A DNA stretch of 64,000 bases from an uncultured delta proteobacterium (GTDB lineage Bacteria; Desulfobacterota; Syntrophia; Syntrophales; Smithellaceae), in NCBI GenBank assembly GCA_903907985.1, contig CAIVQG010000057.1, positions 78,614-142,613 of the forward strand. Reading direction: 5' to 3'. Each line of letters begins with the position of its first letter. Within the stretch, counting starts at the first letter, position 1. This document shows positions 8,120 to 64,000 of this stretch, piece after piece. The notes beneath the pieces were generated by a model that worked only from the letters and a program-made list of their open reading frames with translations, had not been told where the DNA came from and ran no database searches. The translations under genes and the position numbers were made by a program.

Positions 8120-8132
8120 AAAGGATACAATA

Positions 8133-14240: not shown

Positions 14241-17134
<2,894 letters not shown>

Positions 17135-18606: not shown

Positions 18607-18923
18607 GGTTCCCCCGCACAACTAAGTTTCATACCTGTTCGCGTTTCGTGGGCGCCTTCAAGATGGGACAGTCTGTTTTCATGGTTGGTAAGTTTTTTAA
18701 AGATTTCTGTCTGGTTGGCGTCGATGGTCCTTAATGTCCGGCAAATAAACCATGCAACGATGAAGAACAAACCTCCGATCAATGCTTGCATGAGGTCAAC
18801 GTGCTCGAACCATGATGGCTCCGCCTTAAATACAGCGGCATAGGCGTAATCGATTAGACTAATCAGTGGTAAGCCGAAGATTATACCCACCATTACGATA
18901 AATACTCTGGTTGCTTTTTTCAT
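18603..18923 (-). CDS. Two-TM membrane protein, holin candidate
   Basis: 106 aa with two TM helices and a charged coiled C-terminus. It lies immediately upstream of the endolysin and overlaps it. Confidence 0.5.
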   Translation of the reverse strand: MKKATRVFIVMVGIIFGLPLISLIDYAYAAVFKAEPSWFEHVDLMQALIGGLFFIVAWFICRTLRTIDANQTEIFKKLTNHENRLSHLEGAHETRTGMKLSCAGEP

Positions 18924-21393: not shown

Positions 21394-21502
21394 TAATAAA
21401 TCAGTGTTTTGCTATGAAATTCTCTAGAAAGGAGAGTAATTATGAGATCGCCAAAAATTAGAGCGCTACAGTGGGCGGGCGCTGTGACAGAAATGCAAAA
21501 AT

Positions 21503-21546
21503 AAAAGGAAGTGGATTAACCTTGGCCGGTATCACTTCCTTTTATT
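21503..21546 (+). terminator. Rho-independent terminator
   Basis: AAGGAAGTG-N19-CACTTCCTT followed by TTATT. Confidence 0.55.
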
Positions 21547-21579: not shown

Positions 21580-21654
21580 GCCCCCGTAACTCAATGGATG
21601 AGTATGTGCCCGCTAAGCGTTAGTACCCGGGTTCGACTCCCGGCTTGGGTGCCC
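21580..21654 (+). pseudogene. Degenerate tRNA-like sequence
   Basis: The D-arm (ACTC-AATGGAT-GAGT) and T-arm (CCGGG-TTCGACT-CCCGG) are canonical. The acceptor stem has 2 mismatches, and the anticodon stem has only two Watson-Crick pairs (two G-U wobbles and a T-T mismatch besides) and C at position 33. Confidence 0.35.
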
Positions 21655-32901: not shown

Positions 32902-32914
32902 TGTTTTTCCTCTC

Positions 32915-33631
32915 TTAAAAACCAAAAATGTTCGCTCTTTGTTTTTTTCGTACGCCGGGAAGCATCCCAAGATATTTATCTTCTTCTTCATCTTGTGTCA
33001 TTGGCTGGGGACCGGATCGGAACTCCATACTCTGCCCACCAGTTAATGTTGATCGTGCTGCTGGCAGGACACCCGGGGTTGCGAGAGTTGCGGTTGGCCC
33101 TATGGGATCACCAGGTCCAGCCGGAGTTATTGCCGGACCCGGTTTATCAAACGACCTCACTGTTGCCCCACTGTTGCCCTGATTTTGGTCCATTAATTTT
33201 TGGCGCAAGTCGATAATCTGATCTGATGTCATTAAAGGATTACCTTTAATCGCCGCCGTAATGACTGCCTCATGGCTTCCTGCCTTCCCCGTTGTACCAG
33301 CATATAGTCGATCGGCTTTATACTTTTCTCCCTCAAGGGCACTGGCAGCGACGTCTCGATGCTGGTTTGCACCAATCTGAGCGACATTGGCAGCGCTGTC
33401 GTTTGCCAGGTTTTGTCTGGCCAGCAATCCGGTTTCGGTAAGGTTCTGTTTTACCAGGTCGTTATCATGGGCCCGAATGTCTTTAGCGGTGGCGAATTGG
33501 TTTGCTTGCTCCGTTGCCCTGTGTTGTTCGTAAAGCAGGTCTGATCTTCTTTTTTTCTCCTCTGCTTGCTGGAAAATATCGCCGCCTTTTACCTGTTCCA
33601 TTATACTGTCAATCATAGCGTTCAAATCCAT
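32915..33631 (-). CDS. Hypothetical virion protein
   Basis: 238-aa ORF tightly packed in the late operon, with a low-complexity Pro/Gly-rich C-terminal half. Confidence 0.55.
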   Translation of the reverse strand: MDLNAMIDSIMEQVKGGDIFQQAEEKKRRSDLLYEQHRATEQANQFATAKDIRAHDNDLVKQNLTETGLLARQNLANDSAANVAQIGANQHRDVAASALEGEKYKADRLYAGTTGKAGSHEAVITAAIKGNPLMTSDQIIDLRQKLMDQNQGNSGATVRSFDKPGPAITPAGPGDPIGPTATLATPGVLPAARSTLTGGQSMEFRSGPQPMTQDEEEDKYLGMLPGVRKKQRANIFGF

Positions 33632-42922: not shown

Positions 42923-44248
42923 CTAAACTACCATTCCTCCCCGCGTGACTGTACATGTGGCGCTGTCCGCAAATCCTGCGCTACTTCCCATTAAATTTGC
43001 GCTCTTGTTATATAAATCTATTCGCCCATTTTTAAAAACATCATAAGTCTCGTCGTCCCTGAATCCGACACCGCTGCCTATGTTCCCCGCCCTGAAACTG
43101 GTTAGAAATTGGAACACTCCCTCAAGGTTGCGGTATAAAGAGGCCCCTCTTGACGGGAGACTCATCTTGATCTTGTTTTTTGTCAGGTTAAAAAGTTTCC
43201 CCGAAGAATTCCCGGCGACAATCCCCTCTGCGGTCAACCATACCGGCACATCGACAAATCCTTGTTCCGCCGATCCTGATGTGCTTCCAAGATCAGGAAG
43301 ATTATTGCAATAGGCCAAGGTCCCCTTGATCGATCCGGACCCGGCCTCAGATTGCGCCATTTGCTCCGGTTCCGTACCTGCCAGAAATCGCGTCTTTTCA
43401 TTCATCCCGATAAACAGTCCCGTGGATACTTTGGCAATCAGCGTGACCTTGCCTTCAAAAGAAAACTTGTTGGAAGTCTGATTAAATAAAGCGAACTTAA
43501 AGGGCTCGCTGTAATAGACCACATTCCCGGACGATCCCCAAATCCGGCCAAAGGCATAACATAGATTCTCCAAATTAGGCGGCGGGTTGCATGAAAATGA
43601 CGGCAGGGGTTCTGCTGTGGGCAGGTCAACAACTTTGCCTGTGGCGCCAGCCAGATAGAAAATACCCTCATCCGTGTCGGTTATCCAAACCAAAGCGGAG
43701 GCGGGACGATTTAGAATCTGAATTCCGCCCTCGGCTGTGAGTTCGATACTCGTTGTCGGGCCATTCCCCGAGATTTCAGTTCCTGCAATATTGGTCATGC
43801 ACACATGGTAAGTGCCGGCAGGGAGATTACCGTCTCCGGAAAGGAGCATTGGACCAGGAGGTTGTGGAATGCCCCAGGATGAAATGGAATTAGTCGAAAT
43901 ATCGAATACCCCCTGCCAGTAGGGGTTTGATATATAAACTTTATCTTCCGCCTCCACATAGGCAAACGGATATGACGGGCCGGATACGGCGCCAACAATT
44001 ATCGCCTGCCCTTGATGAATACGATACATCGCCGTAGCGTCCGCACACAACATACATGAGGCACCTGCCCATAAACTGTGCGCCCCCGGAAGATTAACGA
44101 ATGATGTCTTTCCTTTACGAGCGATTAAGTGCCCTGTTTGGTCAACGTCAGCATTCAATATGACGCGAGGCTCAACGATTCCGCCTTTGTAGTAGATACG
44201 CCTGACGTTGTTCGCCCCGGAAAATCCGTTTATATTAATTTCACCCAT
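42923..44248 (-). CDS. Hypothetical phage tail/baseplate-region protein
   Basis: 441 aa from the ATG at 44248, which overlaps the upstream stop as ATGGGTGA. The track start at 44305 is less likely. Confidence 0.55.
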   Translation of the reverse strand: MGEININGFSGANNVRRIYYKGGIVEPRVILNADVDQTGHLIARKGKTSFVNLPGAHSLWAGASCMLCADATAMYRIHQGQAIIVGAVSGPSYPFAYVEAEDKVYISNPYWQGVFDISTNSISSWGIPQPPGPMLLSGDGNLPAGTYHVCMTNIAGTEISGNGPTTSIELTAEGGIQILNRPASALVWITDTDEGIFYLAGATGKVVDLPTAEPLPSFSCNPPPNLENLCYAFGRIWGSSGNVVYYSEPFKFALFNQTSNKFSFEGKVTLIAKVSTGLFIGMNEKTRFLAGTEPEQMAQSEAGSGSIKGTLAYCNNLPDLGSTSGSAEQGFVDVPVWLTAEGIVAGNSSGKLFNLTKNKIKMSLPSRGASLYRNLEGVFQFLTSFRAGNIGSGVGFRDDETYDVFKNGRIDLYNKSANLMGSSAGFADSATCTVTRGGMVV

Positions 44249-45272
44249 CGCAAGCCCCCCTGTCCTCAAAGCCACCAGATCCGTAGTATTGCGGCTCGCT
44301 ATCAATCCCGATAAAGTCGATTAAATCGGCCATGGCTTCAAAAAACTTGCCAGTATGATACTTGGTCCCGATCCCGGAATTGTCCTGGCCATCTTCTATC
44401 GATTCCCCGAAGATCTCTTTGCAAACATAATGTTTGATTAATTTCTTTTGCAAATGCTCCGGAAGACAATCTGGTTCGTCAGTTCCCAACGTCAACGGCG
44501 TCGGTTTCCGGTAATAATGAATCCCAATGTTTGCGGGTGCGGCCGGAATCCCCTGATAATAAAGTTTCCGCCCTTTTACGCAAACGCGATAAACAGAACC
44601 GGTTTCGGCAAGGGACATATTGCTGCTTTGTTTAAGGAACAGATTGAATGAATAATACCCGCCGCCCCTCGGCGGGTTGATCTTGTTCCAGGCGCCGTCA
44701 AAAACATTAAACACATTTCTCTGATAATCTGCCGGCAAAGAAGCATAAGCCAGAGTCGTTGTGATCACTGTGTCTGATTTGTAAAGGTCGGGCAACGGAG
44801 GCGATACTTCGCTGTCCGGCATCCGGATCCCGCCGGCAATAGCCGAAATGGCGTCATTTATCCGGTCAGTTAATACAACGTCGTTATAGACCGGATCTTG
44901 TATTACTCCCTGAATAGCGGCAAGCAAATCCGACAAGCATGGCCCCGTTCCCGCTTCGCCTGTATCTATAGGTGTTTCCTCTACCGGCAATATGCCTTCC
45001 AGTTCATAAAGTGACCCAAGACTTCCCACGATCCGGCAATTGATCAGGTAATTATGCCCGCCGGTACCGGCACGAGTGTATCCATAAACAAGCGCTCCGG
45101 TAATAGTTTGTTTCGTGACGTCCAGAATGGTTGCGGATACATCCTCCAGGGTAGAAGTGTCCACGGCGGAAATTACTGCGGACGTTATTGTTTCCGCTCC
45201 CAGGCGAGCCGTAAAATCAAAACTGACAGCAAACGCCTCAGAAGGTTGTTTGGTAGAAAATGAATTTGCCAT
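44241..45272 (-). CDS. Hypothetical phage structural protein
   Basis: 343-aa ORF whose start overlaps the upstream stop. Confidence 0.55.
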   Translation of the reverse strand: MANSFSTKQPSEAFAVSFDFTARLGAETITSAVISAVDTSTLEDVSATILDVTKQTITGALVYGYTRAGTGGHNYLINCRIVGSLGSLYELEGILPVEETPIDTGEAGTGPCLSDLLAAIQGVIQDPVYNDVVLTDRINDAISAIAGGIRMPDSEVSPPLPDLYKSDTVITTTLAYASLPADYQRNVFNVFDGAWNKINPPRGGGYYSFNLFLKQSSNMSLAETGSVYRVCVKGRKLYYQGIPAAPANIGIHYYRKPTPLTLGTDEPDCLPEHLQKKLIKHYVCKEIFGESIEDGQDNSGIGTKYHTGKFFEAMADLIDFIGIDSEPQYYGSGGFEDRGACDG

Positions 45273-48499: not shown

Positions 48500-49477
48500 T
48501 TAAACCGGTTCGGTCAGGTTCGTGTGAAGGACCTGCATTTTCCGGTTGGAGCAATACAAATTGCCTCTCCAACGGGTATCCGCCGTAATTACGTCCGGCT
48601 GTCCCAGGACTTCCTTGGAGACCCACTTCGGGGCCGTGAAGTTGTAATCCTTGTGACTGCGCAGAGACAGGAAGTTGGTGTTCAGCGCATACAGATTGCC
48701 TGCAGTGAGCCCGGCGTCGGCTACAATCGGGGCACCTTTGTGGGTGATATTGTCCCAGCCGGCTTCCACCGCTTTGGTGTCCGTGTAACGCTGTTGGGGA
48801 TGAAGCGATCTTTCGTAACCGTCCTTTAATGTTGGCGTGGTGACGATGAAATCAGGCAGCATATCCTTGAAATCGCCCATGTTCGGCGCCCTGAAAATCT
48901 TCTGCAGGATGTCGAAGCCGATTGCTTCCGAGTCTGTGATAACATTGGCCTTCCAATTGGGCATTGCGGCTTCGGTGATGGCACCGTAAGCAACGGCGGT
49001 ATTGGTGTTGAACAAATCGCCCAGGCCGTTAATATTATCTGCGGTTGCCGCGGCGGCAATGATATCTGTCGCCATTTTGATACGCGCCGCCTTGATGATG
49101 CTCTGCATGTATTTCTTGGTTAAATCGATGATCGCTTCGGCGCCCGCATTCTGCGTCATGTCGTCCAGATTCAGGGTATTGGAACCGTAAATACCGGCCC
49201 AGCCGAACCGTGCTGCATCGATGATGTCCACTTTGGACTGATTGATAACGGTAGTGGCACCGTAAGATCCGGAGTTAGAGTTCTGGTATTCCAACGGAAC
49301 CTTTACCATTAAGCCGCCGTCAACGGTTTCGTGGGGCTTTACTTCCCAATTGTCTTTGATGAGGGCGTTGCCCATCAACTTCCAGAGCAATGCGGAAGCT
49401 CTGTTTAAAATGTCCACCGGCTCGATATTGAGCCAGTAATAGTCTGTCGTTGCGTTTAACTGATTGATTAATCCCAT
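48500..49477 (-). CDS. Major capsid protein (candidate)
   Basis: 325 aa, placed directly after the scaffold-like gene and followed by a stem-loop. The call rests on size and position; I verified no motif. Confidence 0.6.
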   Translation of the reverse strand: MGLINQLNATTDYYWLNIEPVDILNRASALLWKLMGNALIKDNWEVKPHETVDGGLMVKVPLEYQNSNSGSYGATTVINQSKVDIIDAARFGWAGIYGSNTLNLDDMTQNAGAEAIIDLTKKYMQSIIKAARIKMATDIIAAAATADNINGLGDLFNTNTAVAYGAITEAAMPNWKANVITDSEAIGFDILQKIFRAPNMGDFKDMLPDFIVTTPTLKDGYERSLHPQQRYTDTKAVEAGWDNITHKGAPIVADAGLTAGNLYALNTNFLSLRSHKDYNFTAPKWVSKEVLGQPDVITADTRWRGNLYCSNRKMQVLHTNLTEPV

Positions 49478-51246: not shown

Positions 51247-53187
51247 TTACATTGTCGGCGCATTCGCCTGCTGCGGCGCTGCTTTCCGTTTTTCGTTCTC
51301 CTGCGTCTGCGTAGATGACGCCATCAATGCCTGTTTTAACTGGATGGCTGCTTCTTCCGGCATACCTGCATCGATAAGGATTTGCAGCGCCTGGTCAAGC
51401 TGGCTCTCAGCGGTACGTTCCAGTTCTTCTTTCCAACCGGGCCACTTCAGAGTTTCCAGTAATCCTCTTTGACCGATGGCATGGACTTCATAAAGCCATT
51501 TGGCCATATCTTGTAATTGTAAAGTCGTCCGTGGTGTTGTGCTTCCCGCTTCCACCATGTAATTGAATTTCCTGCCGGCGTAATCCGTCCCTCTGAATTC
51601 GACAGTGTCCCCTTCCACCTTGGTCGTATCTGTTGTCGTCCCGAAGTTCTGCCATAAACCAATCGCCCACTTTGCCCTTTGCTCGGCAATATTATCAATG
51701 GCCGCTGTCTTGGTCTGCATGAGGACTTGATTGCGTTCCTGGAGTGCTACGATAGCGGAGGCGGCGATGACTCCCGACGGGGCAACGCCTCTATCAGCGT
51801 CTTCGATCTGGTAAACCCTGTCGAAAAACCGGACGATCAGATCCAGAACTTGAAAAAAGGTTTGTGGAAGATTCGGTATCTGCATGAACTCAATCCGGGC
51901 ATTCGGAGTGGTCGGCATTAAGATCAATCTCCCGGCCTTTTGAATTGAGCTCTCAATCATTTCCCTGGTTATGCCGCAATGCTGCTGCACTATAAGAGGC
52001 GGCGCCATGACATTGATCACATAGGCAATCAGTTTAGTGATTATCTGATTAATCTTACTGAGCAAATCCCCAACCTGTTCGGCTGCGGCAAAGCCCCATA
52101 TCGACACACCATCCTTATAGGAATTGGCATAATAAACGGGCAGTCTGCCCCACGGATAGGTATTCCGGGCCTGATCAACCGGTAATTTCGCGTTGATATT
52201 GGGATTGGCGCTGTCATCCAGTACGATGAAACCGCTTTTGATTTTCGTGTCGTTGCTTTTGGTTACGGTTATTTTCCTGATTCCGTCCGGGTAAACAGAC
52301 TCGTCGGCGCTGGCTTCGATGATTAATGCTTCCCCCGTCTCATTGAGAACAGGGTTCCCGGCATCATCTAGCAATGGTTTTGATAGTGTCCGGGTTACCT
52401 TCCGGGTGTCCCTTAACCAAACCTCGATAACCAGGCAGCGCTCCATGGCCTTGTTGCTATTGTCCTGTCCGGGCGTCATGACGGTCATGGCGTCTGCGTA
52501 ATTTCCTATGCTCTGCTGGATGCCGTAACCCTGTGGTTTATAGTCCTCCCGTTCCGCGCCCATGAGTTCGTAGGCTTCATCCGGGGCGATGTCCTTAACT
52601 CCAAAAGTGGCTTCCATGTTGGATATAAAATCAACATAGGCAAACCCGACATAGGGCGCTTCTTCCGAAATATCTTCCCAATTTCCGGGACACGGGAAAA
52701 ACGAAAAAGGGTCGGTAACCATAATGTCCGGCCGGTCTTTGCCTTTATCAAAATATGGTTTTTCCGTTGTAATCCCGTAAAGCTCCATCATTCTGGCCGA
52801 TGCTCTGGTTTTTGTCTGCTGGTCTGTTTCCTTCCACCACTTCTTTAATTCTTGGCTCAGGATGTTTTCAGTCCCATCGTCTAATCCGTCCAGGTCCACG
52901 ACTTCTCCGGTCGGGTTCCGGGCGGTTATATTGGAGACGGTTCGCTCGATATTGGCAAAGTAAAGATTAACAATGGTGTTTTGCTTATATTCCGTTGAAT
53001 ATCCCTTGCGCCCGGAGCGCTGTTTATTCTGCCGGCCGCGATAGAGGGCATAATTGGCAAGGAATCCGGCGTTTTTCCCGAGTCTTTCCTTTTCTAACCG
53101 GGCTATATCGAACAGCATATAGGCAAATTCGGCAACGTCGGTGTGGCCTTTCGGCGGTATGTTCTGTAAGTTCCATTGAGCGTCCAT
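51247..53187 (-). CDS. Portal protein (candidate)
   Basis: 646-aa ORF between the terminase and scaffold/capsid genes. The call rests on size and position. Confidence 0.6.
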   Translation of the reverse strand: MDAQWNLQNIPPKGHTDVAEFAYMLFDIARLEKERLGKNAGFLANYALYRGRQNKQRSGRKGYSTEYKQNTIVNLYFANIERTVSNITARNPTGEVVDLDGLDDGTENILSQELKKWWKETDQQTKTRASARMMELYGITTEKPYFDKGKDRPDIMVTDPFSFFPCPGNWEDISEEAPYVGFAYVDFISNMEATFGVKDIAPDEAYELMGAEREDYKPQGYGIQQSIGNYADAMTVMTPGQDNSNKAMERCLVIEVWLRDTRKVTRTLSKPLLDDAGNPVLNETGEALIIEASADESVYPDGIRKITVTKSNDTKIKSGFIVLDDSANPNINAKLPVDQARNTYPWGRLPVYYANSYKDGVSIWGFAAAEQVGDLLSKINQIITKLIAYVINVMAPPLIVQQHCGITREMIESSIQKAGRLILMPTTPNARIEFMQIPNLPQTFFQVLDLIVRFFDRVYQIEDADRGVAPSGVIAASAIVALQERNQVLMQTKTAAIDNIAEQRAKWAIGLWQNFGTTTDTTKVEGDTVEFRGTDYAGRKFNYMVEAGSTTPRTTLQLQDMAKWLYEVHAIGQRGLLETLKWPGWKEELERTAESQLDQALQILIDAGMPEEAAIQLKQALMASSTQTQENEKRKAAPQQANAPTM

Positions 53188-54227: not shown

Positions 54228-54943
54228 CCTTCCCCCTCCTCCACGTTAAATGCGTTCTCCCTTGCCTGGTCCATCCACATAGTTCTCGATAATAGTGAAT
54301 GAACCAATCCCCCGGCAGCAAATACAGCCGGATCATCGCGCCGGAACTCCCGTAATCTGTTCTTTAATATCTCGTTGCCTCCAAAGTATAGACGTACTCG
54401 ATTTTCTACGATCACTGACCGCAATGAGCGGACGTAATGATCAAAACTCTTAGGCGAATAAAAATCATCGGGGGGAGTGACCAGGATAGCCGACCTTTCA
54501 CCGCCTTGTTCAATCAGCTTTTCATTCAGCAGCGACAGGGTTGTGATAAACCGCTCCGGGTCGCCCCACCATGACCTCAGTAAATCGGGATGAAGGCCGA
54601 AGCCGTATAGCGCCCTCAATTCCAGACACTTATCTAACAGCGACGGTATGTCTTTGTTTTCCGCTTCGGCCAGGAGTTGAAACACTGCCTCTTGTGGTTT
54701 CTTTTGCCCTTTGACTGTTCCAATTATTGCGACATATCCGGGCTGGCCTTCGTCGCCGTCTTTCACTTCCGACGGCCAGCCGATACAGGCGTACAGATCA
54801 TAATATTGCTGGCCTGTTTCCGTATTCTCATAATGAAACGGGCGCTCCTTCAGTGGTTGGCCGGTAATGTTGGCCTGATCCTGCCTGGCCCGTAATAGTT
54901 CCCATGCGTATTCATGAGTGACTTTCTTGATTTTAGGAGGCAT
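54224..54943 (-). CDS. Hypothetical phage protein
   Basis: 239 aa from the ATG at 54943 (GAGGA RBS), overlapping the terL stop by 11 nt. The track start at 55066 lies deep inside terL. Confidence 0.5.
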   Translation of the reverse strand: MPPKIKKVTHEYAWELLRARQDQANITGQPLKERPFHYENTETGQQYYDLYACIGWPSEVKDGDEGQPGYVAIIGTVKGQKKPQEAVFQLLAEAENKDIPSLLDKCLELRALYGFGLHPDLLRSWWGDPERFITTLSLLNEKLIEQGGERSAILVTPPDDFYSPKSFDHYVRSLRSVIVENRVRLYFGGNEILKNRLREFRRDDPAVFAAGGLVHSLLSRTMWMDQARENAFNVEEGEG

Positions 54944-56252
54944 CAGGAAAATCCTCAAACCGGCAATCATCGAAAAGATTATTGGCCTTAATGAATCCAG
55001 ATAGTGAATAGCGGATAGCGTCGATACAATGATTGTGCTTATCAACAATGATGGGCAGGATATCATTGGTCAGGCGGTCGGTTTTATAGCTGTAAAGCCT
55101 GAATTCCTCGGCGGTGCGCTTGCAACGTCCATGAATGTAGATTTTACGGAAGCCCTTTAAAACGGCAATACCGTCCTCAACACTGCCGGGCCATTTTGGA
55201 GCACTGGAAATATTAAAACCTTTGCGCCGAACGTGACTGATCGTTTCCGGTCGTGAATTGTCTGCAGGTATGGGCCAATCCCTTGCCCCCGGAACCGTAT
55301 CGAATAGTTCCGGCAGATCATCCAGCTCAATGCCGACTCCGTACGCCTCCTGGTCAACGTAGAGACAATCCCCTAATATAAAACATCGGACTAATACCGT
55401 TGGATCTTGCGAAAAGCCCCAATCCGCGCCGTAGTATAATCGCGTTCCCGTCGCCGGCTCGTCGAAATCGCTTACCTCAAAACGATTGCGGAAGATAACT
55501 GCATCACTCATTACGCGGCACTGACCGCCCCAAACATGTTCATAGGCTTCCGGGTCCACTTCCAACATGTAACGCCGTTCAGCTTCCAGCGTGGCCGGAA
55601 AATATGGGTTATCTTCATAACCGACTTTTATAACCATAGAATTGGGAGGCGGATGAATAATAAATCTTTGATAGGTCGGATCTGTTTCATCTTCCGGATT
55701 AAATGATATCCAAATCTCTGAACATTCTTTACGGATAGTAGGGATTAATATTTCCCAGGATGAATTACTGATCGATTGAGCTTCCTCCACCCAACAAATA
55801 TCAATGCCCTCGGTTGATTTTATCTCTTGTATTGACCTTCTGAGCCCTTTAAAAAGAAATTGAGCACCAATGGATGAAGTAATGTTTGCCTTGGTAACGT
55901 CGAAATAGTCTGATAATCCTAATGAAACTATTTTATCGGAGATTAACCGATGGACAGAATCGCTTATAGAGCTTTGAAATTCACGGGTACATAGAATCCT
56001 AAGTGGATCTCTGGCCGCTCGTTTGACTAATTTCTCAGCGATTGTATGAGACTTGGCACCACCGCGGCCGCCATACAATACTTTATATCGTGCCGCTTGG
56101 TCTAATGCGAAAAACTTTGGAGGCGTCAAATCTTTTGAAGTTGACAAGATATGATACTTGCGCTGCATTTTTTGTAATGCCGCTGGGCTCGCTATAGATG
56201 AGAGTGCCCCGAATATCTGATCAGAATTCATGCTTGCGCGGGTTAGCTGCAT
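54933..56252 (-). CDS. terL: Terminase large subunit
   Basis: 439 aa with Walker A YGGRGGAKSH and Walker B-like ICWVEEA, plus a C-terminal nuclease-like half (PBSX/Terminase_3 style). Confidence 0.85.
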   Translation of the reverse strand: MQLTRASMNSDQIFGALSSIASPAALQKMQRKYHILSTSKDLTPPKFFALDQAARYKVLYGGRGGAKSHTIAEKLVKRAARDPLRILCTREFQSSISDSVHRLISDKIVSLGLSDYFDVTKANITSSIGAQFLFKGLRRSIQEIKSTEGIDICWVEEAQSISNSSWEILIPTIRKECSEIWISFNPEDETDPTYQRFIIHPPPNSMVIKVGYEDNPYFPATLEAERRYMLEVDPEAYEHVWGGQCRVMSDAVIFRNRFEVSDFDEPATGTRLYYGADWGFSQDPTVLVRCFILGDCLYVDQEAYGVGIELDDLPELFDTVPGARDWPIPADNSRPETISHVRRKGFNISSAPKWPGSVEDGIAVLKGFRKIYIHGRCKRTAEEFRLYSYKTDRLTNDILPIIVDKHNHCIDAIRYSLSGFIKANNLFDDCRFEDFPDAS

Positions 56253-56872
56253 TAATCTACCTTTATAGCCAATAGCTTCGTCCTTACCTCGTCAGCGATT
56301 TCCTTAGGTAATGCTCCCAGGATTACTTCAATAGCCTTTTCATCCAGGCCTACCTCATGCTTTTCCCGGAACATCCCCAACTCTTTACCCATGTTGATTA
56401 ATGCTGTAATTTTATCGTGCAGTTCAAATTCAAACGTGCTTTCCAAAATAGTATCTTCGGAAGGTTTGTCTTTGGTCCCCTGGCTGGCTTTAATAACTCG
56501 CTTCTCTTTAACTTTTTTAATTGCTCGGCTGGCGCCCAATACAAGATCATCAATACCGATGGCTTGGACACATCCGGTAGAATCGATAGTGATATAATCC
56601 TTCATGTCGGAGTAACCAATTAATGCCAGCTCTCTGAGGATTTTTTCTTTAGATGTGAAAACTTTATTTTCGAGTTTCCGTTCTTCCTGGGCAATAGCTT
56701 CCTGAACCTTGACATTTCTTAGCAATCTACTGCCTTGGCATTCCGCTGATTTCGGGGAGAACTTAGCGGCTATTGCTGATTGAGTAGCATTATATGTTTT
56801 TAAATAATGCTGTATAAATATTCGTTTGCGCGTTTCTGCTGACTTATTACCCAACTTCTTTTTAGCCGGCAT
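56252..56872 (-). CDS. terS: Terminase small subunit
   Basis: From the ATG at 56872: MPAKKKLGNKSAETRKRIFIQHYLKTYNATQSAIAAKFSPKSAECQGSRLLRNVKVQEAI, the HTH pattern of P27-type small terminases. Its stop overlaps the terL start. Confidence 0.75.
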   Translation of the reverse strand: MPAKKKLGNKSAETRKRIFIQHYLKTYNATQSAIAAKFSPKSAECQGSRLLRNVKVQEAIAQEERKLENKVFTSKEKILRELALIGYSDMKDYITIDSTGCVQAIGIDDLVLGASRAIKKVKEKRVIKASQGTKDKPSEDTILESTFEFELHDKITALINMGKELGMFREKHEVGLDEKAIEVILGALPKEIADEVRTKLLAIKVD

Positions 56873-57065
56873 GACATTCCCCTTGCTTACTGCGTGGTGC
56901 CCTGAATACTGTCCGGGGTTCTGATCCGTGACCGTCTGAATAATCATTCGCGGCTACCGGCTCACAATTATGGCAAAACTTGCGCTGATCGCAGTTATGC
57001 CCAATGTGCTTTTTGCGGCACCGTGGACAGATACAATTAACCTTTGCGGAATTTCTGCGAGTCAT
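56862..57065 (-). CDS. Small Cys-rich zinc-ribbon protein
   Basis: 67 aa with CICPRC...CHNC, overlapping the terS start by 11 nt. Confidence 0.45.
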   Translation of the reverse strand: MTRRNSAKVNCICPRCRKKHIGHNCDQRKFCHNCEPVAANDYSDGHGSEPRTVFRAPRSKQGECHAG

Positions 57066-57299: not shown

Positions 57300-57449
57300 A
57301 TGGAAAACAAAGAACTGCTGGAAATTATCAAAAAATTACTGAAGACAAATGCTGATCTGGACTTTCTGTTGGAATTGCCGGAATGTGATCTAAAAACCTT
57401 GGTGGGCTGCATAAGGGAGCGGTTTGATCAACTGGGAAATAATCACTGA
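57300..57449 (+). CDS. 49-aa helical protein (below the ORF-track cutoff)
   Basis: ATG at 57300 with a GGGAGAG RBS. The product is MENKELLEIIKKLLKTNADLDFLLELPECDLKTLVGCIRERFDQLGNNH, ending 24 nt before the IHF-like gene. Confidence 0.45.
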   Translation: MENKELLEIIKKLLKTNADLDFLLELPECDLKTLVGCIRERFDQLGNNH

Positions 57450-57473
57450 AAATTATATTGATGAGGAAAAGAC

Positions 57474-57752
57474 ATGAATAAATCGGAAGTAATTCTGCAA
57501 CTAGCCGAAAAATACAATCTAGCCGAGCATAAAGCGACACAAATAGTAAATCTTGTCTTTGACGGTTTTACAAATGAACTTAAAAATGGCGGCAGGATTG
57601 AAATTCGGGGATTTGGAAGTTTCAGTATCCGGGAATACAGAGCTTATAATGGCAGAAACCCCAAAACAGGAAAGACTGTGGCGGTGAAACCGAAGAAATT
57701 ACCGTTTTTTAAGGTGGGTGTTGAATTAAAAAAGAGGGTTGATGGGAAATAA
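57474..57752 (+). CDS. ihfB: IHF/HU-family DNA-bending protein (IHF-beta-like)
   Basis: 92 aa with GRIEIRGFGSFSIREYRAYNGRNPKTGKTVAVKPKKLPFFKVG, the canonical IHF/HU arm. Confidence 0.8.
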   Translation: MNKSEVILQLAEKYNLAEHKATQIVNLVFDGFTNELKNGGRIEIRGFGSFSIREYRAYNGRNPKTGKTVAVKPKKLPFFKVGVELKKRVDGK

Positions 57753-58013
57753 AACAGTCTCGGGCATAGCGCTGGACAAGCTTCCTGTACTCGATAGGCT
57801 AGGAATGTTTCATGACATAGTAGATTTAGAACGCAAATGGTGATAGAAGAAGCCAATAGGCTCTAACGGTCCGCGCGGCTGACCTGCCAAGGTGCTCATC
57901 GCATACAAACACCTTGCCGACGTCGACCACAATGGTGGTGGCTCGTAAGAAGCCATTATCAAGTTTGCATCCGAAGTCGTTTACATATCCTAAGTTGAGG
58001 AAAGGCCTTTACC

Positions 58014-61004
58014 TTGCAGCGTTCTCTTGCGGATATCTATCTTGCTTATCGTCATGCAAAGGGAGCCTTATATTTTGAGCACCGTGGCATCGGACTTTTG
58101 GATTTGGCGTATTATGAGTCTGATCTTGATAGCAACCTCCGCAAACTGCAGGCACGCCTAGCTGAGAATGGGGGGTGGTTCACCGGCCTCCAGCTGGGTG
58201 AGCTCTGGGTCGCCCCAAAGCGGCTCCGCTGCGCACCCAGGTCAAATGGAGAAATTGTTCGTATCGGTGGAAGAAGCGCCGCGAAGGGTTTCGATACTCT
58301 CGACGTGCAGCTCCGCCTCACCCCCACGATCGAGTTCGCAATCGTTGAGGTGCTGTACCTTTGGCAATTCGGACCAGCACTGGAAAGCGTCTTGTCGCCA
58401 AGCGTTGTGGGATATCGCCTCGATTCTCGAAACGGGGAATTGTTAAAGTCACGTCGCTGGCTCTTCGAATACTGGCCAAAACGCTACCAAGAGTTTCGCA
58501 CCGCACCTATCGAGGCAGCGATCGGAGCCCTACAGCATCATAAAGAGCCAGTCGAGATTCTCAGCGCAGACCTCGCAAGCTTCTACGACACGATTGACGC
58601 TAGCTTCCTCGTGGAAGACGAGTTCGTGGCTGATTGCCTTCAAGCGAGCGGGGCTCTGGATACTGTTGCCTTTCTAACAGCAACCCAATCCCTTCTCGAA
58701 TCTCATCGCCAGTATCGAATTCAAGCAGAGCGCCGCACAGGCTTAGAATGGTCAATAGGGATACCTATTGGTGCGTTGACAAGTCGAGTTGTTGCAAACT
58801 TGGCTCTTGCCAGCCTTGACCGCGTCGTAGAAAATTTGAAAGATACCATATGCTATCGACGTTATGTAGATGACATCGTTGTCGTATATTTTACGGCAGC
58901 AGATGCGTCAGACGCGCTAACAGACTCAATTACTGCTGTGCTGCCTGTAGTCGACTCCACGAATGAACCCATTGCCTTAGACGTGCGTGCACTGAGACGA
59001 CCGAGGTGCCAGTTCAAGATCCAGAGCGAGAAAGTACAGGTTCACCGTGTGACTGGCGTGCAAGGTACAAGCTTTCTCCAGTCGATCAGAGATGATTTTT
59101 GTCAGCTTGTGAGCGAGCGCAGGGCATTTCTCGATACCTCTCTGTTTCTGGAGGAAAAAGCCCTGCAATTAGTGAGTGCTTGCAAGGTCGACGGCTCACC
59201 GCTAAGGGTTCTGAGGGACGCTGACCGGTTACATCTCAAACACTTTGCCCTGTCAACGACACTTGCGTCACTCGAACGTGCTTCTAGTCTTCTCGATCCC
59301 GACGCCGCGATTGCAATTGCACAGCAAACACAGGATCATATTGGCCGCGTGCTTGATGGTGAGGAGGACTGGGTTGAGAATCTCGACCTGACATTTCGGT
59401 TGCTGCGACTTTCACTTGCTACTCAGGACTGGAAGTCTTTCGACCAACTGAATACGCGAATGGATCAAACTTGGGGCTCTATTGAGGCCCTGCAGAAGAC
59501 AGTAACCACTCTTAGCCACTCTGGTCGTCCAATAGATAGTAACCGTGCGTGGATTTCGCTTCGAAACTATTTACACGAAAAGCGGGTTGAGGCAATCATA
59601 TCCTCATTACCTCTCACCGACCTAAAAAGAAGAGCGCAGGGCCTCAATACTGGTATTCTAGTCCGGACTAGCCGTCTCGGGACTTTAGCATTATTTCGGC
59701 GGGCTCTCCTCCTCGCCGCATCTGACCTCCGAGCTCTTGACAGGGAAGATGACAAGATCGGAGAAAATCCATTTGATAGCGTCGATCACAACTGGCTAAA
59801 ACTGCCGCTGGTCGACGACCCTGATCTCTGCAGCCGGTTTGATACAATCGAATCGTTCGTCACGGAGTGCTCACAGCTTGGTGACAAGCCTTGGGCGATC
59901 GCTCCCGCGCGCCTTTTCCTGTGCACCAGGCCACCATCCTACTTCGACATTGCTCGGCGTCTCCTGTACCACGTAGAAAAGAATGGTTTCGCCTTAGATG
60001 GGTTCGAGAAGCTCCTTCGAGTCGTCAACGCAGTGAGAGGCACCCAGTACCGGGACCCGCTTGGCAAGGTTATTGACGATGTAACCGTGAGATTTCCTTA
60101 TAATGAGAAGATTACTGATCTGCCATCTGATCCTCGCCTCATTATTGGCAATTTGGTCGTTCCGGAAAAACCATACTGGGATGGAGCCGCAACTAGAGTT
60201 GAAGGCTCAGAGAATGGACGGCCAGTATTGGACTGGCCTCGGTTGCGCGGTCTTGCAACGGTGGTCACTAAAGCCACAAGAATTGCCAAAGCCCCAGCAG
60301 GTGGAAGAGCCAGGCCATCCTTACTGGTTTTGCCCGAACTATCGGTACCCCGACCCTGGTTTCGGACCCTTGCGAACCATATCGTCCGGTTTGGTGGAAT
60401 CGGACTTGTTGTTGGACTCGAGTACCGGCACCACACCACCAGACCTCTTGTTTACAATCAAGTTTTTGCCGTCATCCCCGGCCCATTCTTCTCTGTAGTA
60501 ACTTGGCCATGGACGAAACGTCTTCCTTCCAGGGAAGAAGCGAACGCGCTTCTCAAAAGCACCCCCCCGCTACGCTTTCCGACTCCACCGACTCCACTTC
60601 ATCCACGCGTAGTGGTGCATTCCACGTACGGCAAATTCTCAGTTCTTATCTGCAGCGAACTCCTCGAAGCTAGGCGTGTGGCTGACCTACTGGGGCGTGT
60701 GGAGCTTGTGCTCTCACCATCCTGGAATAAGGATACTTTTTCGTATGACCATCTCATCCAGTCCGTGGGTCTTCAGCTACACTGCATTGTGGGCATTGCG
60801 AACAACGGACAATATTCAGACTGCAGAGTCTGGGCACCAAAAGAAGAGCGCTACCAGCGCGACATGTGCCGCCTCATTGAGCGCGGCACAAATGATGTTG
60901 TAAGCGTCGAGCTTCCCCTCGCTGAACTACGAAGGATTCATCTCGGCAGGTCACAGAATGGTGATGAAAAGTGGCGACCGCTTCCGCCTGACTGGCCCTC
61001 CTAA
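58014..61004 (+). CDS. Reverse transcriptase fused to a nitrilase-superfamily (C-N hydrolase) domain; DRT/UG-class defence RT
   Basis: 996 aa. RT motif A is ILSADLASFYD, the B-like motif is IGIPIGALTSRVVANLAL, and motif C YVDD lies at 58863-58874. A helical middle follows, then LLVLPE (E775) and VLICSE (C880, 60651-60653). TTG start; the block is GC-rich. Confidence 0.8.
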   Translation: MQRSLADIYLAYRHAKGALYFEHRGIGLLDLAYYESDLDSNLRKLQARLAENGGWFTGLQLGELWVAPKRLRCAPRSNGEIVRIGGRSAAKGFDTLDVQLRLTPTIEFAIVEVLYLWQFGPALESVLSPSVVGYRLDSRNGELLKSRRWLFEYWPKRYQEFRTAPIEAAIGALQHHKEPVEILSADLASFYDTIDASFLVEDEFVADCLQASGALDTVAFLTATQSLLESHRQYRIQAERRTGLEWSIGIPIGALTSRVVANLALASLDRVVENLKDTICYRRYVDDIVVVYFTAADASDALTDSITAVLPVVDSTNEPIALDVRALRRPRCQFKIQSEKVQVHRVTGVQGTSFLQSIRDDFCQLVSERRAFLDTSLFLEEKALQLVSACKVDGSPLRVLRDADRLHLKHFALSTTLASLERASSLLDPDAAIAIAQQTQDHIGRVLDGEEDWVENLDLTFRLLRLSLATQDWKSFDQLNTRMDQTWGSIEALQKTVTTLSHSGRPIDSNRAWISLRNYLHEKRVEAIISSLPLTDLKRRAQGLNTGILVRTSRLGTLALFRRALLLAASDLRALDREDDKIGENPFDSVDHNWLKLPLVDDPDLCSRFDTIESFVTECSQLGDKPWAIAPARLFLCTRPPSYFDIARRLLYHVEKNGFALDGFEKLLRVVNAVRGTQYRDPLGKVIDDVTVRFPYNEKITDLPSDPRLIIGNLVVPEKPYWDGAATRVEGSENGRPVLDWPRLRGLATVVTKATRIAKAPAGGRARPSLLVLPELSVPRPWFRTLANHIVRFGGIGLVVGLEYRHHTTRPLVYNQVFAVIPGPFFSVVTWPWTKRLPSREEANALLKSTPPLRFPTPPTPLHPRVVVHSTYGKFSVLICSELLEARRVADLLGRVELVLSPSWNKDTFSYDHLIQSVGLQLHCIVGIANNGQYSDCRVWAPKEERYQRDMCRLIERGTNDVVSVELPLAELRRIHLGRSQNGDEKWRPLPPDWPS

Positions 61005-61449
61005 GGCCTAGCGCTGCCCAACCAGATGTAAAACCGATATCTGAGCAGTTACGCGTCACTTGATTTAAAATCATAATTCTCAATAGTTCATTGAGTACCC
61101 TATCCTTGACTCGTAGGTGTACTCGTCGTTTCCGCTGATTCAGCGATTTTGAAATATCTGTGATCGGAATTTTTATTTGTTGCTTCCTTGTTATCAAGCA
61201 TCTAATGATTTTGATAGGCATCCATCCTTACAAGTGATAATCATCAGTAAATGCGAGAAGAAAGTCTTTGTTTATAGTAGATATTCTATCTTAATAGTGA
61301 TACTAAAAAAACATTGTAAAATGTAATCCACATAAAAGTTTCTAAACATTTAAACCTGCGTAATGTTATTATGAGATGATGATTGACAAAAAAGTCTTGG
61401 AATAAATTATTTTCTATCTTCAATTGATGCTTAATCGGAGAAATACAGT

Positions 61450-64000
61450 ATGTCATCTGATCTAACCTTTCTTACGAATGAGTCCGGGAAAAGTCTAAAA
61501 GAACGTTTTTCTGACATCCTCAAGACTGACGCGCGTTTTTTTGACTGTCTGGTCGGCTACTTTTTCATCAGTGGTTTTTACAAGCTCTACCCGGCGCTGG
61601 AGAACGTCGAGAAGGTTCGCATTCTTGTCGGCCTGCACACAGATCGCCCGGCGTATGAGCTTCTGCAAAAAGCGGGAGAGCAGGGCGAGTTGCCGTTGCA
61701 GTCCCATGCGACGGTCATCGAGAAAATTCCAGACAATGTGCTCAAGGAATTTGAGAATTCCGACGACAGCGAAGTGATCGAAACGGGTGTCCACAAATTT
61801 GTTGAGTGGGTTCGTTCCGGCAAGCTGGAGATCAAAGCCTACCCCGGAGAAAAACTTCATGCCAAGGTCTATATCATGACCTTCAACGAGGGGTTTATGG
61901 ACAAAGGCCGGGTAATCACAGGTTCAAGCAACCTTACCCAATCTGGCCTGCAGGACAACCTCGAGTTCAACGTCGAGTTGAAAAGCCGTGCTGATTATGA
62001 TTTTGCCATCGCCAAGTTCAAAGAACTTTGGGCTGTGGCCGTTGATGTCTCCCAGCCTTATGAAGACACCATCGTCAACCGGTCGCCCTTCGCTCATTTT
62101 ACACCTTATGAACTTTACCTGAAATTCCTGTACGAATATTTCCGGGGCGAGCTAAACCGTCCGGATCAACTTGAAGACATCTACGTTCCCGATGGGTTCA
62201 AAAGATTGAAGTATCAAGAGGAGGCCGTTCTGAGCGCACGCAAAGTTCTCCAGGAATACGGTGGGCTGTTTTTATCCGATGTTGTCGGCCTCGGCAAAAC
62301 CTACATGGCAGCATTGCTTGCCCAGCAACTGGATGGCCGGTCGCTGGTGATCGCACCGCCTAACTTGCTGGATAAGAACAATCGCGGATCGTGGCCTAAC
62401 GTTTTCGGGGATTTCCGTGTGCCGCATACCGATTTTGAATCCAGCGGGAAATTGGAAGATCTCTTGGCACGTGACTTATCCAAGTATTCCAATGTTTTCA
62501 TCGACGAATCCCATCGCTTTCGCACAGAGACGAATCAGACTTATGAGATGCTAGCGCAGATCTGTCGCGGCAAACGGGTGATCCTGGTCTCGGCAACGCC
62601 GCTGAATAATACCCCACGGGACATTCTCAGCCAAGTCAAACTTTTTCAGAACGGAAAGAACAGCACCATTCCCAACGTCCGTAACCTTGAAGCCTTCTTC
62701 ACCCGAATTGAGAAACGTCTTAATGGTCTTGACAGACAGACCGAACGGGAACAATATTTTGCGACCGTCCAGGCCAATGCGAAGGAGACGCGAGAGCAAA
62801 TCCTCAAATATTTGATGATTCGGAGAACACGAAAAGAAATCATGAAATACTACGGGGAAGACCTGACACTACAAGGTCTTAAATTTCCCGATGTCACAGA
62901 CCCCCAGCCCCTATACTATAAGTTCAACAAGACGGAAAACGACATCTTTATTGAAACAGTCCGCCTGATAACAAAAGATTTCACATACGCCCGGTACAAG
63001 CCTTTGGCCTATTACGAGGGTAAACGCGAGAATCGCGAGGTGCAGAGTCAGCAAAACCTTGCGAAGTTTATGAAGATACTTCTTATCAAACGCCTGGAGA
63101 GTAGCTTCCACGCATTCCGCCTAAGCCTTGAACGCTTTATCATATCCTATGATCGCTTCATTAAAGAATTTGATAATGGTAACGTTTACATCAGCAAAAA
63201 GCACATCAATAAAATCTTTGAACTGCTGGAAACTGACAACCAGGAAGCCATTGATCGTCTGCTCGATACGGACAGGGCCGAACGGCTGAACGCGAAAGAA
63301 TTTAATGCAGATTTTCTCCGTGACCTCGAAGCTGATCGCGTGATCCTGAAAAATATTGAAACCCTTTGGAAGCAGATCAAACGCGATCCCAAGTGGGAGG
63401 CATTTTCAGAGGTTCTCCGAAAAGACAGCATTCTCAAGAAGGGCAAAGTAATTATATTCACCGAATCCAAAGAGACAGCGGAATATCTCCATCAACGGAT
63501 CACCGATGATATTGATCGGAAGGTATTGCTTTTCACCGGCAGCTCCACTGATGCTGAACGCAAGGAGGTCATTGCCAATTTCGATGCCCGCGCCTTTCAA
63601 CCTCAGGACAAATACCGGATACTGGTCACCACGGAAGTGCTTTCTGAAGGCGTCAACCTGCACCGCTCCAATATCGTGGTCAATTACGATATCCCATGGA
63701 ATCCGACCCGCCTCATTCAGCGCGTTGGTCGTGTCAACCGGGTGGATACCGCATTCGACACCATTCACACCTACAACTTTTTCCCGACAGAAGAGAGCAA
63801 CGATCTGATCAAGCTCAAGGAAGCAGCCGAGGCCAAGATACACGCCTTCATCGAGATGCTCGGTGCCGATGCACGTCTGCTGACGGAAGGCGAAGAAATA
63901 AAATCACATGACCTCTTTGCTAAATTGATTTCAAAGAAAACGATCACGGGCGAAGAGGAAGACGAAGAAAGCGAACTGGAATATCTCACCGAAATCCGGG
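61450..64000 (+). CDS. PLD-family nuclease / SNF2-family helicase fusion (3' end outside the window)
   Basis: Hand-translated open frame from the ATG at 61450 to the window end. It contains a single HKD motif LHAKVYI (H at 61858) with GSSNLT (61921-61938), helicase motif I GLGKT (62287-62301), motif II DESH (62503-62514), SATPLNN, and motif VI QRVGRVNR. Confidence 0.8.
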   Translation, partial: MSSDLTFLTNESGKSLKERFSDILKTDARFFDCLVGYFFISGFYKLYPALENVEKVRILVGLHTDRPAYELLQKAGEQGELPLQSHATVIEKIPDNVLKEFENSDDSEVIETGVHKFVEWVRSGKLEIKAYPGEKLHAKVYIMTFNEGFMDKGRVITGSSNLTQSGLQDNLEFNVELKSRADYDFAIAKFKELWAVAVDVSQPYEDTIVNRSPFAHFTPYELYLKFLYEYFRGELNRPDQLEDIYVPDGFKRLKYQEEAVLSARKVLQEYGGLFLSDVVGLGKTYMAALLAQQLDGRSLVIAPPNLLDKNNRGSWPNVFGDFRVPHTDFESSGKLEDLLARDLSKYSNVFIDESHRFRTETNQTYEMLAQICRGKRVILVSATPLNNTPRDILSQVKLFQNGKNSTIPNVRNLEAFFTRIEKRLNGLDRQTEREQYFATVQANAKETREQILKYLMIRRTRKEIMKYYGEDLTLQGLKFPDVTDPQPLYYKFNKTENDIFIETVRLITKDFTYARYKPLAYYEGKRENREVQSQQNLAKFMKILLIKRLESSFHAFRLSLERFIISYDRFIKEFDNGNVYISKKHINKIFELLETDNQEAIDRLLDTDRAERLNAKEFNADFLRDLEADRVILKNIETLWKQIKRDPKWEAFSEVLRKDSILKKGKVIIFTESKETAEYLHQRITDDIDRKVLLFTGSSTDAERKEVIANFDARAFQPQDKYRILVTTEVLSEGVNLHRSNIVVNYDIPWNPTRLIQRVGRVNRVDTAFDTIHTYNFFPTEESNDLIKLKEAAEAKIHAFIEMLGADARLLTEGEEIKSHDLFAKLISKKTITGEEEDEESELEYLTEIR

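Follow-up and report, generated by a model that had tools for sequence, protein, structure and literature searches.

A predicted UG5-large (DRT11-type) reverse transcriptase-nitrilase gene on a single-gene cassette next to a prophage-like block in an uncultured Smithella-like deltaproteobacterium

Introduction

Class 3 of the UG/Abi reverse transcriptases (RTs) consists of proteins of about 1,000 amino acids (aa) or more, in which the RT is combined with a C-N hydrolase through an uncharacterised extension. This RT-hydrolase extension is present in all class 3 RTs, and in the UG5-large group the hydrolase is fused to the RT (Mestre 2022). A downstream membrane protein accompanies 31 of 299 UG5-large members (Mestre 2022). 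The present report deals with a gene assigned to this group in a stretch of 64,000 nucleotides (nt), referred to as the window, from an uncultured delta proteobacterium (GenBank assembly GCA_903907985.1, contig CAIVQG010000057.1, positions 78,614 to 142,613). Its product quite probably acts as a single-protein abortive-infection system like the defence-associated RT (DRT) called DRT11, with a class 3 UG/Abi RT fused to an effector of the nitrilase superfamily. The gene is carried on a small cassette, found with the same ends in three genomic contexts that are unrelated to one another.

The name DRT11 was given to the UG5-large system by the authors who described it in Sinorhizobium meliloti, where the partnerless protein guards its host against podovirus-like phages (PMC13436386, Microbiol Spectr, July 2026). 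Protection depends on the multiplicity of infection and resembles abortive infection, and it is abolished by the exchanges DD296-297AA and C876A. RNA sequencing showed no flanking noncoding RNA (ncRNA), and a deletion 5' of the promoter was harmless (PMC13436386). The gene used here for comparison is that of S. meliloti RMO17 (pSymA 109344-112361, WP_040120558.1, 1005 aa). A second UG5-large system, 'RT-nitrilase + TM', is known from P2/P4 hotspots of E. coli and is reported to require a downstream membrane protein, according to the passage of PMC9226505 that cites Rousset 2022. It is represented here by a homologue, WP_000222103.1 (1069 aa), encoded on the E. coli plasmid NZ_CP146678.1.

Most mechanistic detail comes from DRT1 (UG1) of Klebsiella pneumoniae (PMC13275509, Nat Struct Mol Biol, June 2026). 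DRT1 makes template-free, protein-primed and semirandom single-stranded DNA (ssDNA) adducts, which drive the assembly of tetramers and filaments through the nitrilase domains. A domain swap brings the last 19 residues over the nitrilase pocket of the neighbouring subunit, giving a closed and dormant state, and activation requires the Dda helicase of phage T4. The nitrilase acts as the effector, and the priming residue, Ser402, lies in an unresolved post-RT loop (PMC13275509). Purified 'DRT5S' and 'DRT5L' likewise make covalent DNA without a template (PMC13275509).

The existence, architecture, defensive role and broad mechanism of the UG5-large system are already published. A first-pass annotation of the window, made by a model from the letters alone, had presented the gene as the best candidate for a poorly understood system and had held the template, the product and the role of the hydrolase to be open for this group of RTs. 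Both statements have been overtaken by the two papers of 2026 (PMC13275509; PMC13436386), and its suggested plaque assays with YVDD and Cys mutants have meanwhile been carried out on a relative.

The gene and its family

The gene extends from 58014 to 61004 on the + strand and encodes 996 aa from a TTG start codon, and re-reading of the sequence bore out the earlier annotation on all of these points. An identical protein is encoded on scaffold_3878 of ENA ERZ18625396. The gene upstream, which encodes a DNA-binding protein of the HU/IHF type (phrog_379, PF00216), ends with its stop codon at 57752. This leaves 261 nt of noncoding DNA before the TTG, in agreement with the gap of about 260 nt without an open reading frame (ORF) noted before. 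A Shine-Dalgarno-like sequence, GAGGAAAGG, was read at 57997..58005 (+ strand), 8-13 nt 5' of the TTG. It is conserved in two close copies of the gene, namely L002, from a metagenome-assembled genome (MAG) of an uncultured deltaproteobacterium, and L192. At the homologous codon the 88%-identical copy L002 has ATG and the 95%-identical copy L192 has TTG, so that together with the Shine-Dalgarno sequence the TTG start is credible. Between L002 and the window gene about 18% of the synonymous sites differ (proportion of differing synonymous sites, pS, 0.18; synonymous distance, dS, 0.21). The ratio of nonsynonymous to synonymous change (dN/dS) is 0.285 for the whole gene, 0.33 for the RT, 0.22 for the helical and 0.34 for the nitrilase part. 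The gene is under purifying selection.

The PADLOC model RT_UG5-nitrilase (PDLC03780) covers the protein almost completely: residues 4-994 match positions 22-890 of the 907 positions of the profile (E 1.9e-120, 401.9 bits). The model RTasNitrilase follows with E 2.8e-35, RT_UG5_small gives 64.2 bits on the RT half and Drt1a 52.8 bits on residues 157-352 only, while the next unrelated PADLOC models reach at most 67 bits. The retron, Drt2, Drt3, Drt4 and group II intron models of NCBIfam all remained far under their cut-offs. Searched exhaustively with phmmer, a set of 1.84 billion cluster representatives yielded 342 clusters at E<=1e-30 and 926 at E<=1e-10, with identity declining in a continuous gradient from 55% to about 28% and reaching canonical UG5-large-like full-length proteins of about 1,000 aa. 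Named members of the sub-branch come from Sorangium, Minicystis, Haliangium, Tahibacter, Stenotrophomonas, Hydrogenophaga, Burkholderiales, Vicinamibacterales, Latescibacterota and a spirochaete. Judged by profile and alignment, the gene is an intact class 3 UG/Abi RT of the UG5-large (DRT11) type, in a sub-branch that is divergent but has many members.

The first-pass annotation had placed the RT-nitrilase fusion in the UG1/UG5/UG6 group of defence RTs and had proposed profile searches. The significant match to the UG5-large profile from end to end upholds this placement. Its label 'DRT type 1' stands as far as membership of the group is meant; the type itself does not, as DRT type 1 is UG1 and the family found here is UG5-large. 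UG1 proteins have 1200-1300 aa against 996 aa in the window, and 52.8 bits for Drt1a stand against 401.9 bits for the UG5-large model. Two further classes of RT were considered and rejected. For a group II intron RT or maturase the score of TIGR04416 is 29 bits at a cut-off of 300, and no intron RNA family was found with Rfam. For an ncRNA-templated RT of the retron, DRT2 or DRT9 type there is no conserved structured RNA nearby, and the NCBIfam scores for retron, Drt2 and Drt3 are far below cut-off.

Domain architecture and conserved residues

An AlphaFold2 monomer model (predicted TM-score, pTM, 0.83; mean predicted local distance difference test, pLDDT, 76.6), with secondary structure assigned by DSSP, shows an RT fold in roughly the first 350 residues; the part that follows, to about residue 700, is helical, and an alpha/beta sandwich occupies about 705-996. 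The model matches the layout of RT, helical and nitrilase regions that had been read from the sequence before. Conservation was examined in an alignment of 38 full-length homologues with 50-95% identity. Ten residues of the active sites and their surroundings are invariant in it: D186, Y284, V285, D286, D287, E775, K835, E842, C880 and E882. YVDD and the E-K-C triad, for which such a check had been suggested, are among them, and the coordinates given earlier for D186, YVDD, E775, K835 and C880 all proved right.

The RT domain, with fingers, palm and thumb, spans 58014..59063 (+ strand; residues 1 to about 350) and is indicated by a sub-threshold Pfam match, the DRT models of PADLOC and Foldseek. 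It contains the catalytic Asp186 of motif A in ILSADLASFYD (58569..58571, +; invariant in 38/38) and motif C, Y284-V285-D286-D287 (58863..58874, +; 38/38), which aligns with YVDD 294-297 of DRT11. Among the PHROGs, phrog_1423 is an RT family match. In a Foldseek search against the PDB the best RT match was the G2L4 RT (5.7e-7), besides DRT9, a diversity-generating retroelement (DGR) RT and a group II intron RT; further RT matches were DRT4, DRT6, AbiK, AbiA and Abi-P2. Entries matched by the RT include 9d4s, 9vma, 8ubd, 9vdo, 9wy8 and 7r06.

Behind the RT lies a conserved segment, residues 366-405 (59109..59228, +), which reads SERRAFxD...GSPLRVLRDADR and has pLDDT values below 50. Ser367 is present in 38/38 and Ser395 in 37/38 homologues. 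Ser367 also aligns with a serine of DRT11 (ASEWRA) and of E. coli UG5-large (SSEHRL); Ser395 does not. By its likeness to DRT1 this loop with Ser367 is the best candidate for a priming loop. The alpha-helical middle (residues ~351-700; 59064..60113, +) was delimited by DSSP on the model.

The C-N hydrolase domain of the nitrilase superfamily (residues ~705-996; 60126..61001, +) is indicated by PADLOC, PHROG and Foldseek, and the unnamed family phrog_28773 covers residues 767-950 of it. Foldseek matches of the C-N hydrolase type are PH0642 (1j31), a P. horikoshii amidase (6ypa), AmiF (5g3o, 2dyu), N-carbamoylputrescine amidohydrolase, nitrilase 3ivz and Lnt. E is about 1e-4 to 4e-5 for 1j31, 6ypa, AmiF and 3ivz, and for these and Lnt the TM-scores normalised to the target are 0.5-0.58. 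Both the RT and the C-N hydrolase fold claimed in the first-pass annotation were thus recovered independently of each other. Amidases of the C-N hydrolase type carry E-K-E-C catalytic tetrads. In the window protein these would correspond to the catalytic Glu775 in LLVLPE (60336..60338, +), the catalytic Lys835 in WTKR (60516..60518, +), the candidate second glutamate Glu842 (60537..60539, +), which was placed by its position at Lys+7, and the nucleophile Cys880 in VLICSE (60651..60653, +), all of them invariant. Lys835 aligns with Lys833 of DRT11, and Cys880 with Cys876 of DRT11 and Cys1116 of DRT1.

The protein ends with the motif W-R-P-L-P-P-D-W (residues 987-994; 60972..60995, +), in the family W-R/K-P-L-P-P-D-W, which is located after a linker varying by 0-30 residues. 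W987, P991, P992 and W994 are invariant in the alignment, although pLDDT is below 50 here in the monomer model. DRT11 and E. coli UG5-large carry FKP(V/L)P where WRPLPPDW stands. By comparison with the domain-swapped tail of DRT1, WRPLPPDW is the best candidate for a lid which would complete and occlude the nitrilase pocket.

Comparison with described class 3 RTs

DRT11 and the window protein are collinear, with 1005 and 996 aa and the same order of domains. YVDD 284-287, K835, C880 and E882 of the window protein align with 294-297, K833, C876 and E878 of DRT11. Common to both are the serine of the SE+R motif and a C-terminal aromatic-basic-P-x-P motif. Both genes are without a membrane-protein partner and without a detectable ncRNA, and both are found in a variable region among other defence or toxin-antitoxin genes. 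The two proteins differ in sequence, with only 26% identity in the RT and 30% in the nitrilase and a helical middle that BLASTP does not align, and in their PADLOC score of 1016 bits for DRT11 against 402 for the window protein. DRT11 belongs to a rhizobium megaplasmid, whereas the window gene is located on the chromosome of an anaerobic Smithella-like syntroph, next to a prophage.

With E. coli UG5-large the window protein shares the order RT-helical-nitrilase, the best PADLOC model (RT_UG5-nitrilase) and a setting in prophage or mobile-element hotspots. Identity is 22% in the RT and 32% in the nitrilase. The E. coli system is reported to need its membrane partner, whereas the window cassette ends 115 nt past the stop codon and has no second gene.

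The best match among solved structures, found by sequence, is 9YFD, the structure of DRT1 (E 2.3e-8), and covers only the palm and the region around the nitrilase cysteine. The PDB copy used with Foldseek (April 2026) was without 9YFD, so the comparison with DRT1 is one at the sequence level. DRT1 is also a class 3 RT-helical-nitrilase fusion in which both active sites are required for abortive infection, and the equivalent residues, such as C880 for C1116, are conserved in the window protein. Both proteins have a disordered post-RT loop and a conserved C-terminal tail. DRT1 is larger (1229 aa), and its model Drt1a gives a mere 52.8 bits here. UG5-small, UG6 and UG29 are related lineages with RT and nitrilase. 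The UG5-small model scores 64 bits on the RT half of the window protein, but UG5-small and UG6 encode the nitrilase as a separate ORF, whereas it is fused in the window gene. A DnaG-type primase is also present in UG6 and in UG29, the latter of about 2500 aa; neither feature is seen in the window protein.

A proposed mode of action

Architecture, conservation of residues, selection, the absence of a partner and of an ncRNA, and the carriage by a cassette were computed here, and the steps of the following scheme are taken over from DRT11, DRT1 and 'DRT5S/L'. The RT would work without a template and prime on a hydroxyl side chain of its own, for which Ser367 in the disordered post-RT loop is the best candidate. 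The product would be a short covalent ssDNA adduct of semirandom sequence. Such adducts may drive oligomerisation through the nitrilase domains, which would assemble the active sites and at the same time lock them shut, probably by means of the conserved C-terminal WRPLPPDW tail. A replication factor of an infecting phage might then perturb the assembly of DNA and protein and free the nitrilase activity. Hydrolysis of an essential metabolite bearing an amide or nitrile group would finally halt the infected cell before phage release.

Several points weigh against this reading. At the level of the family, Pfam RVT_1 covers residues 167-302 with 27.5 bits, just below the gathering score of 29.6, and Pfam CN_hydrolase does not match the 996-aa protein. 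The window protein and two close relatives reach 394-402 bits on the PADLOC UG5 model, on which the validated DRT11 and E. coli UG5-large score 1016 and 1034 bits, and identity with these two proteins is low overall (26-32%). With regard to the mechanism, self-sufficiency is not universal in UG5-large, given the E. coli system that is reported to depend on its partner. Filaments, the C-terminal swap, a protein-priming serine and the Dda trigger come from evidence on DRT1 (UG1) only. Ser402 of DRT1 is stated not to be conserved in other class 3 DRTs (PMC13275509), which makes Ser367 as the primer only a guess. That 'DRT5S' and 'DRT5L' correspond to UG5-small and UG5-large is our reading of the class 3 context of the same paper.

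A mobile single-gene cassette

The first-pass annotation had pointed out a GC-rich islet at roughly 57850-61020. Its GC content shows that it is real but modest, and its ends could be set by comparison with other copies. Homology between the window and L002, determined with blastn and MAFFT, extends over 57790-61119 with 90.6% identity and stops abruptly on both sides, where the flanks are unrelated. L192, the third context (95% protein identity), shares 57780-61113 with the window, and its flanks are unrelated to those of both other copies. Depending on the comparison used, the left end therefore falls at 57780-57790 and the right end at 61113-61119 (cassette 57780..61119, + strand). In L002 the gene stands between ParB_N/HicAB/Macro genes and trp genes.

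The GC content of the cassette is 52.0%, compared to a window mean of 46.7% with a standard deviation (sd) of 2.4% for windows of 3.3 kb. This makes it the highest 3.3-kb block in the window, while a region near 47 kb reaches 51.7%. Intergenic DNA of 34-38% GC borders the cassette on both sides, so the islet looks sharper than the true contrast. The cassette has about 52% GC both in the window, where the host has 46-47%, and in L002, where the neighbourhood has 54-55%. The strongest evidence for a unit is comparative rather than compositional, namely that homology starts and ends at the edges of the islet. The islet is a discrete single-gene cassette of about 3.3 kb which moves horizontally and has the same ends in three unrelated contexts.

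The cassette encodes no recombinase, transposase or integrase, and neither terminal inverted repeats nor a target-site duplication were found at its ends. Even when up to 4 mismatches were allowed, the end motifs did not recur in the window or at any of the other loci. An integron attC-like site was considered by eye and rejected: GCCCAAC at 61015-61021 fits the R'' consensus RYYYAAC, but a matching GTTRRRY is missing, and so is a TTRRRY at the start of the cassette. A 17-nt direct repeat with 14/17 identical positions is formed by GGCATAGCGCTGGACAA (57763-57779) and GGCCTAGCGCTGCCCAA (61005-61021). One copy is located outside the left end, after the HU stop codon, and the other directly after the stop codon of the RT-nitrilase gene. 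The copies do not lie at both ends. The repeat is probably due to chance; it could be the trace of an insertion.

Compared with L002, the outermost 60-70 nt at each end of the cassette (57780-57849 and 61050-61119) reach about 93% identity. The remainder of the leader and the synonymous sites stand at about 86%, a difference of about 2.4 sd and a weak signal. It may mean that the ends are constrained in their own right, perhaps as sites of recombination or regulation.

Flanking noncoding DNA

Two noncoding segments travel with the gene. The 5' leader (57790..58013, +; 224 nt), which presumably holds the promoter and the ribosome-binding site, gave no evidence of an ncRNA. It is 85.1% identical to L002, and within the gene the values are 85.8% for third, 92.9% for first and 95.1% for second codon positions. 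The predicted fold of the leader is no more stable than that of shuffled sequence (z = -0.64), and no sigma-70 consensus promoter was found in it. The 3' tail (61005..61119, +), 88.7% identical to L002 and about 93% over its last 70 nt, forms a small hairpin at 61079-61095 (CTCAAT-AGTTC-ATTGAG); a search for a canonical intrinsic terminator found none. Rfam returned nothing at the gathering threshold, nor over 57400-61500 even at E<=1, and nhmmer found leader and tail in L002 only among 23 loci.

A consistent downstream ORF for a membrane protein was not found in 18 related loci; this is a weak result of a crude scan, as raw ORFs are noisy at high GC. The cassette stops 110-115 nt after the stop codon and hence holds one gene. 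Neither an ncRNA nor a partner gene was found in the cassette. The absence of a flanking RNA agrees with the data on DRT11 and, by analogy, with template-free synthesis by DRT1, DRT5S and DRT5L.

Genomic setting

The first 17 kb of the window contain housekeeping genes, among them aldehyde:ferredoxin oxidoreductase (5252-7534), a CdhD-like protein (8112-9293), SerA (14241-15824) and PurA (15827-17134). PurA is 100% identical to proteins encoded on metagenomic contigs as long as 189 kb. Its closest named relatives are from Smithella and Smithellaceae, with 75-84% identity, and the host is for this reason taken as a Smithella-like anaerobic syntroph. A tRNA-Lys gene at 17314-17388 is directly followed by a prophage-like block (17400-56950). 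It comprises genes for a lysozyme (18094-18621), a Bro-N protein (20533-21393), a head-closure protein (42923-44305), an SU10-type adaptor (44241-45272), the major head protein (48500-49477), the portal (51247-53187) and other virion proteins, and the packaging genes for TerL (54933-56252) and TerS (56252-56947). TerL relatives with up to 81% identity are common on IMG/VR contigs, and megablast of window positions 40000-64000 against the phage genomes of INPHARED gave no match.

Some further features of the block were observed. A giant ORF of 3,492 aa (22513-32991, - strand) matches only phrog_616 (4e-50) and phrog_30335, which are families without an assigned function, and in residues 2348-2482 phrog_10276, a 'DNA repair protein'; it has no homologue in 160 TerL-related phage loci. 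The Rfam tRNA model gives 35.7 bits for a tRNA-like sequence at 21580-21651, which ARAGORN does not call. This sequence could represent a degenerate phage tRNA or what is left of an attachment site. A hairpin (21500-21546) with complementary arms of 14 nt, AATAAAAGGAAGTG and CACTTCCTTTTATT, precedes it by about 33 nt.

On the 3' side the cassette is followed by an AT-rich spacer of about 300 nt and a separate module with a sharp start at 61427. Its gene (61427-64000, ATG at 61450) runs off the end of the window and encodes an HKD (PLD-like) nuclease with an SNF2 helicase (PADLOC C3a139 'HKD+Snf2' 4e-45, DrmD 1e-36). DNA homology to seven loci in unrelated contexts begins sharply at 61427. The relatives have 1,071 aa and are 77-97% identical across several phyla. 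They are always followed by an overlapping gene for an Eco57I/MmeI-type methyltransferase of about 1,041 aa, and then by Gabija-like (AAA_21/OLD-TOPRIM and UvrD) or Qat genes. HKD-SNF2 and methyltransferase look like a widespread mobile two-gene restriction-like defence module. The RT cassette belongs to a mosaic whose defence modules were acquired independently and which borders on the packaging end of the prophage.

Alternative explanations

The position of the cassette raises the question of its carrier. It is a serious possibility, though one we do not favour, that the cassette is cargo of the prophage, a moron guarding the lysogen against other phages, rather than a piece of a chromosomal defence island that only adjoins the prophage; the molecular mechanism would be the same. 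The cassette is only 840 nt away from the start of terS and just past the phage-type HU gene (phrog_379), packaging, head and tail genes run back from there to the tRNA-Lys, and UG5-large is already known from P2/P4 hotspots according to the passage cited in PMC9226505. Neither an integrase nor an attachment-site (att) repeat of the 3' end of the tRNA-Lys was found within the 64-kb window, so the element may extend past 64000. Against this stands that the RT, HU and HKD-SNF2 genes occur in 0/160 phage or metagenome loci with a related TerL (47-81% identity). No homologue of the RT-nitrilase was found in IMG/VR or by tblastn in INPHARED, and no exact copy of the cassette ends in IMG/VR. The two other copies of the cassette are not beside phage genes where their context is visible, and the neighbouring HKD-SNF2 module occurs in chromosomal defence islands.

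The remaining explanations depart further from an abortive-infection system of the DRT11 type. A dedicated ncRNA in the 224-nt leader or the 115-nt tail might serve as template, as in retrons, DRT2, DRT3 and DRT9, so that the nitrilase would answer to a templated cDNA. The noncoding flanks do move with the gene in all three contexts and are best conserved at their outermost 60-70 nt; yet the leader as a whole is conserved at the synonymous level only and folds no more stably than shuffled sequence, Rfam is empty at E<=1 and nhmmer detects neither flank in the 20 more distant loci, which makes such a template improbable. The gene could also be a silent or decaying passenger, a horizontally acquired remnant whose TTG start is not used in the host, and the start codon, the leader without a sigma-70-like promoter and the foreign base composition would suit this. 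It is hard to reconcile with a full-length frame that matches the N- and C-termini of the family, with intact catalytic residues throughout, with dN/dS of 0.285 and with a good Shine-Dalgarno sequence before a start that is TTG in L192 and ATG in L002, and is just as improbable. Ends that agree within about 10 nt in three contexts, the lack of transposase or integrase, terminal inverted repeats and target-site duplication, and a size close to one transcription unit might suggest a selfish retro-mobile unit, in which the RT copies its own transcript and reinserts it and defence is secondary or absent. This is the least probable of the explanations, as every known relative is a defence protein, class 3 RTs need no template in vitro, no RNA family of introns or retroelements and no endonuclease or maturase domain was detected, and purifying selection acts on the nitrilase as it does on the RT. 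The three contexts would also be compatible with ordinary recombination within defence islands, and they are too few to separate active mobility from such recombination. That the ~3.3-kb unit represents a new type of autonomous mobile element, by RT-dependent self-mobilisation or by capture through an unrecognised site-specific system, is likewise given very little weight, and in a weaker version the novelty would be that the sub-branch differs from DRT11 and DRT1 in priming residue, trigger or substrate.

Significance

The window provides a clean and intact example of UG5-large/DRT11 from an uncultured anaerobic syntroph, in a sub-branch with 26-32% identity to the tested proteins. The locus does not bear on the substrate of the nitrilase. 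Ser367 in the SE+R loop, the LRxAD motif, Glu842 and WRPLPPDW are invariant across that distance and offer specific targets. They bear on two questions about class 3 DRTs, namely the attachment site of the DNA adduct and the gating of the nitrilase. A sharply bounded one-gene cassette in three contexts is in addition a small but concrete piece of evidence on the movement of defence genes between islands and hotspots beside prophages.

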